DNA of 64,000 nucleotides from Podarcis vaucheri (lineage: Eukaryota). Position 1 is the stretch's first letter. Each line of letters opens with the position of its first letter. The DNA lies in the NCBI GenBank assembly GCA_965113315.1, contig OZ220370.1, one strand, 5' to 3'. The notes below the pieces were generated by a model. That model saw only the letters and a list, made by a program, of their open reading frames with translations, was not told where the DNA came from and did not search any database. The position numbers and the translations under genes were made by a program. Below are positions 7,741 to 64,000 of the stretch, one piece after another.

Positions 7741-10700
7741 ATCACATTTGCTTAAGTCACATTTCAAATTTCAAGTCAACCAATCTGCATTACCCGTTTT
7801 GTTTCCATGCATCTGCACCCTCCGAACTCCTATTCATGAAACTCTTGTCTATGCATATGCAACTCCTGTCTCAAATGTACACACCTCAGCTTAACTGTGA
7901 AGTAAGTGTAGCATACATTTTTTTGATCAGATAGAAGCTGGTAAGGGCTGATGGGCATTGTATTGAGTGTACTATGTATTGTACATGTACATGTATTGAG
8001 TGTACTATGTTTGCTAGCCGTGGTCTAGAAAGCAATTGAGGAAATGGTTCTCCTTTCTTATTCTGAGAATCATGGCTACTTACATCCTAAAATAGCACCT
8101 CATGCCATTAGCAGTTTGATTTAAACTCAAATTTGCTTATTCCCTTCACTATTCACATCTTGCACTAGGTAGTCCTATATTGATAGACTGTTGCCAGAAT
8201 GCCCACTATCCGGTTGAACAATCAAGGCTTTTTGTGCCAATCATGACATCCATCTTGTGTTGGTAAATTCTGTTCACATTCATTATCCACAAAAGTTATT
8301 TCTTGGGAAGCACTTATGCAGTTCCACCAACTATCAATTATTATTTTCCCCCGTATCAGGTATAAGCTACTGTTTTCCAACTTGGCTCAGAGCAAGGCTT
8401 GAGAGAGATGAAAACTAAAATTTCATATATTCCTAAAATGAATTTATGGCCCATTAGCTGTGGCATACAACTATTTCTATAACTGATTTATTGCAAGAAT
8501 GGCTAAGTCTCCGTTAAACAACTAAATGAATAAACTTCAGTTGCAACTATACTTAATGCTTAATGCTGAAGTAAATACTTTTACATCCTGATATTTCTGC
8601 AGAAATATGTTGAGGATCATGTTAAGAAAGTAACATTTTCCACATACTGCAACAAGGAGTTTCTATAATTTAGTTCATTCTTGAACTAATGCTGCAGGAA
8701 TCAGCACTAAACTTTGATTATACCAGACCACTGGCACCCATCTACATCCCAATTTCTTGCCGTAAAAGGTTAACCACTAAGTGTGAAGTGAAAAATATTA
8801 GCTACTAACAGATAGATATCTATCAACCACATCCTCCTGCAGCACATTTGAAAGGAATTAAAGAATATGGGGTTTGGACAGAGCTGTTTTATTTAGTACA
8901 TTTAAAAAAAAAAAAAATCAGTGAAAGCAGCTTGACCTGTCTATAATGACATAAAACTTAACTTTACTTCAGAATTAATTTAAAACACATACTGTAACAG
9001 GATTAAGATTGCCATAGGAGTGACATCAGAGTTCACATTAGAATCTGATCCATTCTATCATCAGATGTTGACCACCTGACTATTCAGTGACATCTTTCTA
9101 TCTCACATGCAGCAAATAAGCAGATTACACATTATGTACACTGCAATTTCAAGGGAAGCACGTGGAACCCAAACACTAACAGCATCTCCATCAATCCTAT
9201 GATTTTTCAAAATACTTTTATTTAAAGTAAGATTTCCTTTTAATAGTTTATACTCTCTTGCCTGTCTCCAAGTTACTATTACTATCCAACTGTCTATCCA
9301 AGACCATCATTATTCTCTACCCCCAACAGATAAACAAAAGGAAAACAAGTAGGGACAAGGGTAAGTAATACATCCCAACACACAAAACATCAAATTCATT
9401 TTAAGGAGATAAAACAGCTCTCGGTGTATTCCTTAGTTACTATATAAGTAATTTTGAAGCAAAGTCCTATCCCGCCTCACAGCAACCAATTTAAAAGTTG
9501 GCTTTTGTGCTAACATTTTGCTTGAAAACTAATATTTATACCCTAACCCTATGCATGCCAAATTGGAAGCTGTAGTGTTCAAGGGAGTTTACCTATGGAA
9601 ATCATATAAAGGGTTATGACTTTGCTTATTTATCAATGAGGGCAAACCACAGCATTTCCAGTTTTGATTAGATACAATCAGTCAGAACCTTTTAATATTT
9701 TGCAAACCTTAAAACGCATGCTAATAACTGTGCATTCACCGTTACTACACAAACCTGCAGTGGTCTGTGTATTAGTATTTAACAACCAGTCTGCAGTGCT
9801 GAGCAGAGTCATGTCACCTAAAGGAAAATTGCAAAGAAAATGAAAAAGCTAGTACCTTTTCCACACATGTCCCAAAAGAATACGTACAAAAATGTACAGA
9901 AGTTTTCCATTTCTTTTTAAAATTGCTAACTAATTAATTAAAGGGCAGTGCTTCAGGCAGTGTTCCTGCAGTCTACAATCTCTAAAATATAACCTTGATT
10001 CAACATCCAGACTAATTTTTGTACTCCTTTTTATTTTTCCTCATTTCCTCATGCACCCACTATCCCCTGCTTTGGGGGATACCTTGCCTGATAAAGACTT
10101 CTGGGGAAATCACAATTTCATAACATATTGGTTGGTCCTATTAAAGGAGTTCTTTTTCTCCTTACCAGTATACCACTTTTCTCTTTACTTGGAGCCATCA
10201 CATTAAAACTTAACTTCGATGTGTTTATCAACAGGAAAAGTTTTCTGGATTTTGTTAAGATAAAACAGTATGCTTACATTCCAATTTTAAAATCAGAAGT
10301 CAGTGGTGTATGTGCACACAAAAAAAGATAAACAGCACAGTCCTCTGCATGTCTGGAATCAAGTCTCTGTGTTTAAAGATCTTTATTCACAGGTAAGTAT
10401 GCTATGACTACATCCTCAATCAGATGTCTTTATCCAAAAGGCAGTGGTCAGTCATTAATATTGACTAAGGTTGCCATCCTAAAGATACAAATTTGCATTA
10501 TTTTAATTTAGGGAAAGGGGACAAAAATGGTCTATTTGACAAAATACAATGCAGCTCCATTAGATTTAGAGGGAATGGAGGCTAAAAGTATAATCTGATA
10601 ACCCAAATAGTCTTCATTTAGAACTCAGACCAAAAAAAATGTTTTGGGTAAAGGGCATGGGAATGGTGGGTAAATGGATAATTCATTTGATAGATGTTTC

Positions 10701-11050: not shown

Positions 11051-11335
<285 letters not shown>

Positions 11336-12728: not shown

Positions 12729-12778
12729 CTGCAAATGGATGAAACAGCAACATCTGAACTGGTTTGGGATTTTTGCAC
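12729..12778 (-). CDS. EYA1: EYA1 50-nt exon, open in two frames: VQKSQTSSDVAVSSICR (in frame with MEMQ) and CKNPKPVQ-MLLFHPFA (ATG at 12753)
   Basis: Acceptor ccctggtttgcag|GTGC and donor GCAG|gtaagg. MLLFHPFA resembles the recalled MLLFPQVA start of the short EYA1 isoform. The other frame resembles EYA4 VKKTCTESDVSQSQNSR. Confidence 0.9.
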
Positions 12779-15596: not shown

Positions 15597-15928
15597 NNNN
15601 NNNNNNNNNNNNNNNNNNNNNNNNNNNNNNNNNNNNNNNNNNNNNNNNNNNNNNNNNNNNNNNNNNNNNNNNNNNNNNNNNNNNNNNNNNNNNNNNNNNN
15701 NNNNNNNNNNNNNNNNNNNNNNNNNNNNNNNNNNNNNNNNNNNNNNNNNNNNNNNNNNNNNNNNNNNNNNNNNNNNNNNNNNNNNNNNNNNNNNNNNNNN
15801 NNNNNNNNNNNNNNNNNNNNNNNNNNNNNNNNNNNNNNNNNNNNNNNNNNNNNNNNNNNNNNNNNNNNNNNNNNNNNNNNNNNNNNNNNNNNNNNNNNNN
15901 NNNNNNNNNNNNNNNNNNNNNNNNNNNN
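15597..15928. other. Assembly gap
   Basis: Run of N. Confidence 1.
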
Positions 15929-19161: not shown

Positions 19162-19520
19162 TGCTTCTGAGGCACCATCACCACCAAACCATTTATAGCT
19201 TCGGAGAGGAGGCACGGGAAAAGCCAGATCCGCACCTTCCGAGCGAGAGAGAGCATAATTAGCTTTCCTCAGCCGAGAGCCTTGGGGGATATGGGGGGGG
19301 GCGGATTTAAGCCCCTCTGAACGGGGCAGTTTCTTTTAAGTGAGGTTTCTTACGAGAAGCCCGAAGCGGACGACAAACCGCGGGATCCAGCCGGGAGAAG
19401 CTTCATAAGGAAGGGGACGATCCAGTCCACTCTTTACAATAATAATAATAATATCACGCAACATTCACGTCTGAACTCGACTTGGGCGCGCGTAGCAGAT
19501 TCGTCCTCTGCTGCGTAAGG
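17930..19520. promoter_or_regulatory. EYA1: CpG island / EYA1 proximal promoter
   Basis: Dense CpG and GC content against an AT-rich, CpG-poor background. Minus-strand TATAAAT at 19197-19191 lies about 29 nt before an Inr-like TCA (19170-19168). Octamer ATGCAAAT at 19030-19037 and ETS-like CGGAAGTG at ~18561. Confidence 0.8.
18061..19168 (-). other. EYA1: EYA1 proximal first exon (5' leader); the 5' boundary is approximate
   Basis: Strong donor TTCACT|gtaagt at 18061/18060 inside a CpG island. Blocks such as AGGACAAGAGAATAGCTGTGGTTTGC and GCCACTTCCGACTTTAAGCCTTCC resemble the recalled mammalian EYA1 5'UTR. Confidence 0.75.
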
Positions 19521-38052: not shown

Positions 38053-38192
38053 NNNNNNNNNNNNNNNNNNNNNNNNNNNNNNNNNNNNNNNNNNNNNNNN
38101 NNNNNNNNNNNNNNNNNNNNNNNNNNNNNNNNNNNNNNNNNNNNNNNNNNNNNNNNNNNNNNNNNNNNNNNNNNNNNNNNNNNNNNNNNNNN
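38053..38192. other. Assembly gap
   Basis: Run of N. Confidence 1.
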
Positions 38193-40236: not shown

Positions 40237-40372
40237 NNNNNNNNNNNNNNNNNNNNNNNNNNNNNNNNNNNNNNNNNNNNNNNNNNNNNNNNNNNNNNNN
40301 NNNNNNNNNNNNNNNNNNNNNNNNNNNNNNNNNNNNNNNNNNNNNNNNNNNNNNNNNNNNNNNNNNNNNNNN
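40237..40372. other. Assembly gap
   Basis: Run of N. Confidence 1.
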
Positions 40373-60254: not shown

Positions 60255-60365
60255 TCCGATGAAGAGATCTCTGGCCCATGGAAGCTTATGAATAAATTTG
60301 TTTACCTTTAAGGTGTCAGAAGATTTTCTTATATTGCTGCAAGAAAACAATACCGCTGCTCTTCA
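60255..60365 (+). mobile_element. Penelope-like element terminal remnant
   Basis: tgaaga...cccatggaagcttatgaataaatttgtt...taaggtg resembles recalled reptile Penelope ends; degenerate. Confidence 0.4.
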
Positions 60366-60750
60366 AAAGTTTGTCCCTTGTTCAGCACAGGGCCTAACAC
60401 TGCTTCAAATACACCTAAAACAAAGAACATGAAAGTCTCAGAAAAGCTTATTAACAAAACAAATTAGACTGTTTTAAGGTTAAAATATTGGCTGACTCAT
60501 TGGCAGTAGCACCGTGATTTTTCCTGTGACATTTACACTAAGCATAAAGCAATAACTTTAAAATTAAATACATTTGCAGTTCAGCTTTGATGTAGCCTTT
60601 AACCTCTCATGGTATAATAAATCCATAGCTCCAGATCATTAAGAGCGGGACAGTGCTTTAAGGAGTTTCCAAGCACTCAGTTATGACAAAAATAATTACC
60701 GCTTTAATGGCAATAATTCTTTCCTCAGGGGTGACATGCTGTTTACTTAC

Positions 60751-60846
60751 AGTCTATCCATTTATCCCCGGAGGGTCTTCCATTGAAGATATCTTCTTCC
60801 AAATTATATGTTGGCTGTAAAGCTACAGTGCGCTTCAAACTAGCAC
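60751..60846 (-). other. EYA1: Distal EYA1 exon (96 nt: 63 nt leader plus 33 nt ATG...ACT); ancestral N-terminal exon with an in-frame TAG
   Basis: Acceptor ctctcttctacag|GTGC and donor GACT|gtaagta. The ATG at 60783 lies exactly 33 nt from a phase-0 donor and reads MEDPPGING*T. This matches the architecture of the EYA4 (MEDSQDLNEQS) and EYA3 (MEEEQDLPEQP) first coding exons. Confidence 0.8.
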
Positions 60847-61423
60847 CTGTAGAAGAGAGTAGTGCATAGCTGTATTCATTTGTTGGCATGAAATTAAGAG
60901 CAGATTGTCGTATGTGCAGCTTTCCGTGGAACAACATGTACACACACGTCAGGAGCATTCATCTTCAATGAATTAGACTGATCTTTTAAATAAATATTCT
61001 CGGTGGGTTGGCCATGACAACCAGCATGAGCCCCAACACAGGAAATTATAGCTCTCTTGTTAGTTAGCAGCTGAAGTGAAGAGAGGCAGCCATGAATGGT
61101 TTTTTGTAGCCAATATTTCTGTGCCACTGGGACACAAGAGATGAGGGGCTTTTCTTATTTGGTGCCACGCTCGTTCTTACATTTGCTTCCCACCAGCATC
61201 AGTGACCGTGCCATGTACAAAATGCAACAAAAATGGACCATAAATGTAGACTGAGCTCAGGTTTTAAACATAGGAAAAATCACACCTTTGAGAACATACT
61301 TCAAGCAAAGGAAATTGTTGTACTAATTTGCTAAAGGTTCATATTAGGTCACACTTTTACACATTCAGAAGGAGCCATCTTTGTTAGCCATCATGCAACA
61401 GAACATGGTGTTTGCTGCTATTA

Positions 61424-62103
61424 GGTGATCGCGTGATCCACGCGACGGTCACCTCCAGATTGGATTACGTGGGGCTCTACGTGGGGCTGCCCTTGAGACT
61501 GACCCAGAAACTCCAGCGGGTGCAGAATGCTGTAGCGAGACTCCTTACAAGGTCTTTGCTGCGAGATCACATTCACCCGGTGCTACACCAGCTGCACTGG
61601 CTCCCGGTGGAGTACAGGATCAGATTTAAGGTGCTGGTTTTAACCTTTAAAGCCCTATACGGCCTAGGACCCTCGTACCTACGGGACCGCCTCTCCTGGT
61701 ATGCCCCACAGAGAAACTTACGGTCTTCAAATAAAAACATCTTGAAGGTCCCAGGCCACAGAGAAGTTAGGCTGGCCTCAACTAGAGCCAGGGCTTTTTC
61801 GGCTGTGGCTCCGATCTGGTGGAACACTCTGTCACAAGAGACCAGGGCCCTGCGGGACTTGACATCTTTCCGCAGGGCCTGCAAGACAGAGCTGTTCCAC
61901 CAGGCCTTTGGCCAGGGCACAGCCTGACTCCCTCCCTCGGCAATCTTCGCGGAGCTCTGGCCCAATGGTTGCCAGTGGCCTGAATTAATTAATTTTACAA
62001 TGAATGATTTTAGAGTGTTGTTTATGTTATACTTTTATACTGTTTTATTGTTGTTAGCCGCCCTGAGCCCGGCTTCGGCTGGGGAGGGCGGGATATAAAT
62101 AAA

Positions 62104-62155
<52 letters not shown>
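61424..62155 (+). mobile_element. L2-clade LINE 3' fragment
   Basis: ORF2 C-terminus (TSRLDY, KLQRVQNAVARLLT, LHWLPVEYRIRFKVL, RAFS), terminal stem-loop and (TTA)n tail. Confidence 0.92.
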
Positions 62156-62530
62156 TCAACTAGTGAGGCAATTATCAAAATGTACGTTTTGTAAGGATTT
62201 CAATAAAGAACAGTGTTTGAATGCTGTCGTTAGACATCCCATTGCCTTTTGAACGTATTTGGCAGAGTGTGGCTACTCTGTACTCTAGTAGTTCTGAAGC
62301 TTGTATGGGAAATAAGGTTATTGGGTTTAGGAGTAGAAGAAGTCAACAAGCTTACTTTCCTCTGTTTGCATCAGTCAGAATCTTTGGCACAAATAAATGA
62401 CTCCCTCTAGTAATGCAAGAGTATGTGCACTTTGTTATTCATTTCAGAAACTACTTGGAAGGGTTAACTGAATACCTGATTTATCAGTTTTCCCACTGCC
62501 ATGCCTTGTTTGGTTGGTGGCTTGTTTGGA

Positions 62531-62535
62531 TAATG

Positions 62536-62583
<48 letters not shown>
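62531..62583. repeat. (ATA)n microsatellite
   Basis: Seen directly in the sequence. Confidence 0.95.
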
Positions 62584-62587
<4 letters not shown>

Positions 62588-63985: not shown

Positions 63986-64000
63986 TAATGCAATTTCATA

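Follow-up and report, generated by a model that had tools for sequence, protein, structure and literature searches.

In the lizard Podarcis vaucheri, the distal exon of EYA1 carries a stop in the leader frame; it probably survives as an untranslated leader exon, and its second ATG (ATG2) is more likely to be what remains of former Asn-Gly codons than a selected start. The stop, the loss of the first ATG (ATG1) in relatives, the intact donor and the obligatory silence of a C>T change in the +1 frame are direct observations. In the proposed mechanism, transcripts from a distal promoter would still splice through this exon to a 50-nt exon, and such splicing would suffice to keep both splice sites. 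Translation of EYA1 would then begin at the main Met of the 128-nt exon (11242) when that exon is included, and at a Met inside the 50-nt exon (12753) when it is skipped. ATG1 and ATG2, both having T at -3, would serve as weak starts upstream of these, and some initiation at ATG2 on skipped transcripts may add 12 extra residues as a by-product.

Exons and reading frames at the 5' end of EYA1

On the minus strand of the window, the whole 64,000-nt stretch analysed, lies the 5' part of EYA1; the VKTEP exon falls outside it, as do any exons beyond position 64000. A search with the translation of the 128-nt exon returned 1,030 proteins, and of the best 120 of the 1,030 nearly all that bear a name are eyes absent homolog or EYA1. 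The distal exon (96 nt, 60751..60846, minus strand, as are all features below) is bounded by an AG acceptor, ...TTCTACAG, and a GTAAGT donor (60745..60750). It was recognized by tblastn and through leader-bearing models, with EYA1 models of baboon and hedgehog matching 60807-60757. These matches identify it as the homologue of the exon that supplies the MEDP... leader in EYA1 models from birds and mammals.

Several further features surround this exon. Compared with one related lizard (X20), its 5' end (60840-60843) falls short by about 14 nt; the loose end of X20 keeps the acceptor AG. Upstream of the exon lie a GC-richer stretch ending in (TTA)n (61430-62160), by eye resembling a retroposon fragment, as well as a (TAA)n tract (62530-62585). 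The intron leading to the 50-nt exon contains N gaps at 15597-15928, 38053-38192 and 40237-40372.

The 50-nt exon (12729..12778) is read in two frames in gene models, as VQKSQ... in frame 1 and ...MLLFHPFA in frame 2, and its frame 1 is identical to that of Podarcis muralis models. It contains a third ATG (ATG3, 12751..12753), the in-frame Met that starts models of an exon-skipping isoform in birds and mammals. The 128-nt exon follows (11119..11246), carrying the main EYA1 start (MEMQ, ATG at 11242). Farther downstream, a 63-nt cassette exon (9755..9817; 78 nt when extended to the alternative donor at 9740) is entered in phase 1. This 63/78-nt exon occurs in lizard and bird models, and a skip product could join there in frame too.

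An alternative upstream exon of Podarcis gene models lies at 19354..19464 (tblastn of P0110 and P0011; donor GTAAGA). It matches Podarcis muralis models at 97% and leads into the 50-nt exon in frame 1, bypassing the distal exon. Lizard models enter the 50-nt exon either from 19464-19354 or from about 12979-12947, the latter being placed by its resemblance to a gecko model. The 50-nt exon therefore needs the distal exon for neither of its frames. The stretch at about 12979-12947 is a weaker match to an upstream exon of Sphaerodactylus, and that at 20398-20249 is a weaker match to one of Pogona, with stops present here; neither has a plain GT donor where checked. The Podarcis muralis entry P0060 includes an upstream coding exon that corresponds to 20213-20175, and within it the window has TAA where P0060 has Gln. 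In-frame upstream extensions such as that of P0060 may be unselected.

Within the distal exon there are exactly two ATGs, ATG1 at 60783 and ATG2 at 60761, in equal contexts with T at -3 and G at +4. Frame 1, starting at ATG1, reads MEDPPGING-stop. Its remnant (60754..60783) comprises ATG1, eight codons and the TAG at 60754..60756, so that what is left is an upstream ORF of at most nine codons. An open frame from ATG1 into the 50-nt exon is absent. ATG2 (60759..60761) arises from the AAT GGA (Asn-Gly) of frame 1, and frame 2 from this point encodes MDR plus two bases, continuing as CKNPKPVQMLLFHPFA in the 50-nt exon.

The preliminary description had proposed that this second ATG opens an overlapping frame, and its minus-strand reading is correct. 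It had also proposed that frame 2 ends in the same phase as the 128-nt exon. This holds as well: frame 2 runs for 61 nt (11 + 50) and frame 1 for 211 nt at the end of the 128-nt exon, both leaving in phase 1, and the phases fit skipping. The second frame is thus open, has its own start and is in phase with the downstream exons. The 50-nt exon also has the features of the skip isoform, with an ATG at 12753 in frame 2 and a phase-1 exit. ATG3 has a poorer context than ATG2, with C at -3 and T at +4; position -3 is a pyrimidine in each of the four ATGs. On transcripts that include the 128-nt exon, frame 2 from ATG2 would run for 27 codons and end 16 nt beyond the point where the main ATG begins. 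ATG2 would then head an overlapping upstream ORF, but ATG3 already creates one in that frame.

The stop base, gene models and substitutions

A central claim of the preliminary description was that the base change creating the stop is silent in the second frame. A C>T change at codon position 1 of frame 1 falls at position 3 of the +1 frame, where it is silent for all 16 preceding dinucleotides, and the same 16/16 applies to CAG>TAG, CAA>TAA and CGA>TGA alike. Silence of the stop base is uninformative because the genetic code forces it. As a sign of selection, being "silent in frame 2" is ruled out by this test of the code.

The C>T change is itself presumed. The MEDP leader occurs in 104 of 356 fetched models among the matches listed, and the residue homologous to the TAG is Lys in 91/104 of these leader-bearing models (birds) and Gln in 13/104 (mammals). 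Starting instead from AAG, for the Lys of birds, the substitution would give Glu>Asp in frame 2 and so would not be silent. The earlier reading of TAG in frame 1 with an unchanged Asp in frame 2 stands for a C>T origin and fails for an AAG one. These fetched models are gene-model predictions, taken from the best 110-120 matches with 15 members per cluster, and they include redundant isoforms, mostly from birds.

An open ATG in the required phase is also common, occurring in 14.6% of 9,039 sampled 33-nt stretches of the window and in 24.3% of 9,003 sampled 96-nt stretches. The observation does not go beyond chance, because the silence is forced by the code, open in-phase ATGs are common and the C>T change is presumed. 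The headline coincidence is trivial, and the finding is mostly ordinary. Among the leader models in the matches listed, 101/104 carry Asn-Gly or Asn-Glu, which are compatible with ATG2, and 3/104, all from Pezoporus parrots, carry Asn-Gln, which excludes it.

Gene models also bear on the use of frame 2. Among the matches listed, 6 of 356 models join ...MLLFPQ(A/V)A straight to VKTEP and skip the MEMQ exon; they come from a cormorant (P0208), dog (P0273 and P0309), goat (P0274) and owls (P0336 and P0338). In each of the six, the first residue is the internal Met homologous to 12753. None of the 360 fetched proteins among the matches listed begins with the upstream frame-2 start expected from ATG2. 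These start counts are moderate evidence, resting as they do on predicted models with uncertain 5' ends. Reading the 50-nt exon in frame 2 while skipping the 128-nt exon corresponds to a predicted isoform already known from bird and mammal gene models. No lizard skip model appeared among the matches fetched. The MEDP leader was likewise found in none of the 36 squamate and 14 turtle models fetched among the matches listed. Its absence from squamate models suggests a wider loss, and turtles too may have lost the leader or not express it. Compared with 1.84 billion representatives, the 33-residue open stretch had one match, an unrelated 643-aa repeat protein matched seven times.

The preliminary description had called for substitution patterns to be compared in both frames. 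The comparison set the lizard against two sparrow models, one giving the whole 50-nt exon in frame 2 (P0102) and the other reading frame 1. Identity between lizard and sparrow over this exon is 15/16 in frame 1 and 11/16 in frame 2. Six base changes are the minimum required, of which five fall at frame-1 wobble positions and none at frame-2 wobble positions (p=0.018 for at least 5/6). Upstream of the internal Met, frame 2 differs at 2/8 residues and frame 1 at 0/8. In this one pair, the substitutions do not spare the frame-2 protein, which favours selection on frame 1 rather than frame 2. Frame 1 is intact in sparrow, and a single pair of this kind does not isolate the lizard branch.

Four of 24 listed runs were compared with 60300-61400. 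Three of them (X17, X19 and X20), from related lizards and tagged as possible RNA, each gave one contig that covers at least 60665-60839; being unspliced through the intron, these contigs were treated as genomic. Conservation of ATG2 in related lizards, on which the two-frame proposal had been staked, is what they display: for ATG2, the TAG and the donor, no difference is listed in 3/3. All three differ from the window at 60781, where ATG1 becomes ATA, at 60778, where the change is silent, and at 60770, where Pro becomes Gln, the residue of many bird models. ATG2 is consequently the only ATG left in the covered part of their exon. Because their exonic differences are identical, the three relatives amount to about one independent comparison.

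The earlier claim that frame 1 is switched off is borne out by the TAG, found here and in 3/3 relatives, and by the ATA at ATG1 in those relatives. Frame 1 is long dead. Either enough time has passed since the stop arose for the frame-1 start to disappear as well, or frame 1 took more than one hit. The ATA beside a shared TAG indicates that the leader was lost in a common ancestor and then decayed further. In the distal exon the frame is lost while the splice sites are kept, as in a coding exon turned untranslated.

The distribution of changes does not single out frame 2. Exonic substitutions occur only in the 22 nt that code in frame 1 alone (3/22 vs 0/73; post hoc Fisher p=0.011), and against the frame-2 part (0/11) the comparison gives p=0.53. 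For the 11 nt from ATG2 to the exon end, the probability of zero changes is about 0.65 at the local rate or, taking the rate of the farther intron, 0.32. Chance can account for the conservation around ATG2. Over the 56 nt that precede both ATGs there are 0/56 changes against 17/175 in the farther intron (p=0.015, post hoc), a count to be read knowing that differences near the ends of contig pieces go unlisted. Since the unchanged part consists mostly of these 56 nt, the constraint is not specific to frame 2.

Alternative readings of the distal exon

The untranslated-leader reading is supported by the 16/16 silence, by the change of ATG1 to ATA with the TAG shared, and by the 3/22 vs 0/73 distribution with its unchanged 56 nt. 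Among the matches listed, all six skip models start internally and none of the 360 proteins starts at an ATG2-type Met. Changes in the 50-nt exon spare frame 1, Pezoporus carries Asn-Gln, and no MEDP leader occurs in squamate or turtle models among the matches listed. Against this reading, none of the three relatives shows a change in ATG2 or its 11 nt, and the RNA sample, which lacks a positive control, yields no spliced distal-exon read.

The RNA result also bears on another explanation, which is possible though unlikely: that lizards no longer splice the distal exon, its sequence being held by an overlapping cis-regulatory element or decaying slowly. A sample of one RNA run (X23, of unlabelled tissue; 12.8 million reads, or about 12% of the run, with no positive control) contained no distal-exon read, a result compatible with expression as well as with its absence. 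Four reads from X23 were less than 90% alike, ended in foreign sequence and were ascribed to a different gene. Conservation extends past the donor into the intron, with 4/89 changes vs 17/175 farther on, which speaks for this explanation. The exon's 5' end, about 14 nt shorter than in X20, and the entry of fetched lizard models into the 50-nt exon from other exons point the same way. However, the donor is unchanged in 3/3 relatives, the acceptor AG is kept in the one relative showing it, and a 5'-untranslated exon would be invisible in protein models.

It is improbable that ATG2 is a selected start, with distal transcripts that skip the 128-nt exon making an EYA1 whose frame-2 N-terminus is 12 residues longer, and thereby keeping the splice sites. 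Some observations agree with it: no stop interrupts frame 2 between ATG2 and the end of the 50-nt exon, its phase suits skipping, ATG2 and the donor persist in 3/3 relatives where ATG1 is lost, the skip isoform exists in bird and mammal models, and ATG3 has the poorer context (C at -3, T at +4). However, the code itself dictates that the stop base is silent, and 0/11 changes are expected by chance (3/22 vs 0/11, p=0.53). Moreover, 0/360 fetched proteins among the matches listed start at an ATG2-type Met, and before the internal Met frame 2 differs from sparrow at 2/8 residues against 0/8 for frame 1. The short ORF of ATG1 overlaps ATG2 here, which would leave leaky scanning as the only route to it, and the X23 sample (about 12% of one run, no positive control) gives no RNA support.

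The preliminary description had gone further, proposing that one substitution killed one isoform while selection spared the other. This is not supported by the relatives, in which ATG1 is also lost. Nor does the skip isoform need ATG2, since it has its own Met in the 50-nt exon (6/6 models among the matches listed), and the 50-nt changes that favour frame 1, along with conservation near ATG2 within chance, speak against sparing. The frame-2 isoform is also dispensable as an explanation of the kept splice sites, because an untranslated leader exon would keep them too. Overall, the earlier sequence observation is confirmed and its interpretation supported in part.

A fuller version holds that the distal exon changed frame in lizards, with frame 1 killed by the stop and, in some lineages, by loss of its start codon, and with ATG2 a working start, so that skip transcripts would give an N-terminally extended EYA1 and inclusion transcripts a 27-codon ORF overlapping and repressing the main start. 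This is very unlikely, and if true, splicing would decide which EYA1 the distal promoter makes. Finally, since the window is a single assembly with N gaps, the TAG might be suspected of being an assembly error or an allele that arose recently and is private to one individual, but three other runs, from two differently coded organisms and one unlabelled, cover 60756 with no difference listed, which essentially refutes this.

Comparison with known EYA1 isoforms and other dual-frame exons

Human EYA1 has three isoforms (a-c) and four transcript variants (PMC3696009), and its isoforms differ at their first exons (PMC3180702). Passages of PMC2674570, PMC8634836 and PMC9004415 do not bear on the EYA1 leader question. 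A published account of a stop or second ATG in the lizard EYA1 leader was not found in the literature searched, which lay largely outside subscription journals. The bird and mammal EYA1 leader appears to have been lost across a group of lizards with the exon donor kept. Such a loss would mean that the leader can be done without and that the constraint on the exon is non-coding in origin, with a modest bearing on how variants are read in this human exon of EYA1, a branchio-oto-renal syndrome gene. If ATG2 were selected, the exon would offer a clean case of a change of reading frame in a conserved developmental gene.

The closest counterparts lie within EYA1 itself. The skip isoform of birds and mammals likewise reads the 50-nt exon in frame 2, skips the 128-nt exon and joins VKTEP, but its models (6/6 among the matches listed) start inside the 50-nt exon and none in the distal exon. 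We take the human isoform with a variant first exon to be equivalent to this skip form, and a 1997 paper reportedly defined the first exons of human EYA1. The MEDP long-leader isoform (human XP_047277480.1, P0234) shares the distal exon, the donor position and the 50-nt and 128-nt exons. Frame 1 is open there, whereas here it is closed by the TAG, and three relatives also lack ATG1.

Beyond this gene, two kinds of system invite comparison. Some dual-coding exons are selected in two frames, as in CDKN2A (INK4a/ARF) and GNAS (XLas/ALEX). The lizard exon resembles them in that one exon is readable in two frames according to the start used. Unlike them, its overlap spans only 11 + 50 nt, both frames lead into the same EYA1 body, and the substitutions favour one frame. 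Coding exons turned into 5'-untranslated exons with short upstream ORFs form a general class. At the DNA level, the lizard exon resembles this class in keeping its splice sites, losing its frame and having downstream starts at hand.
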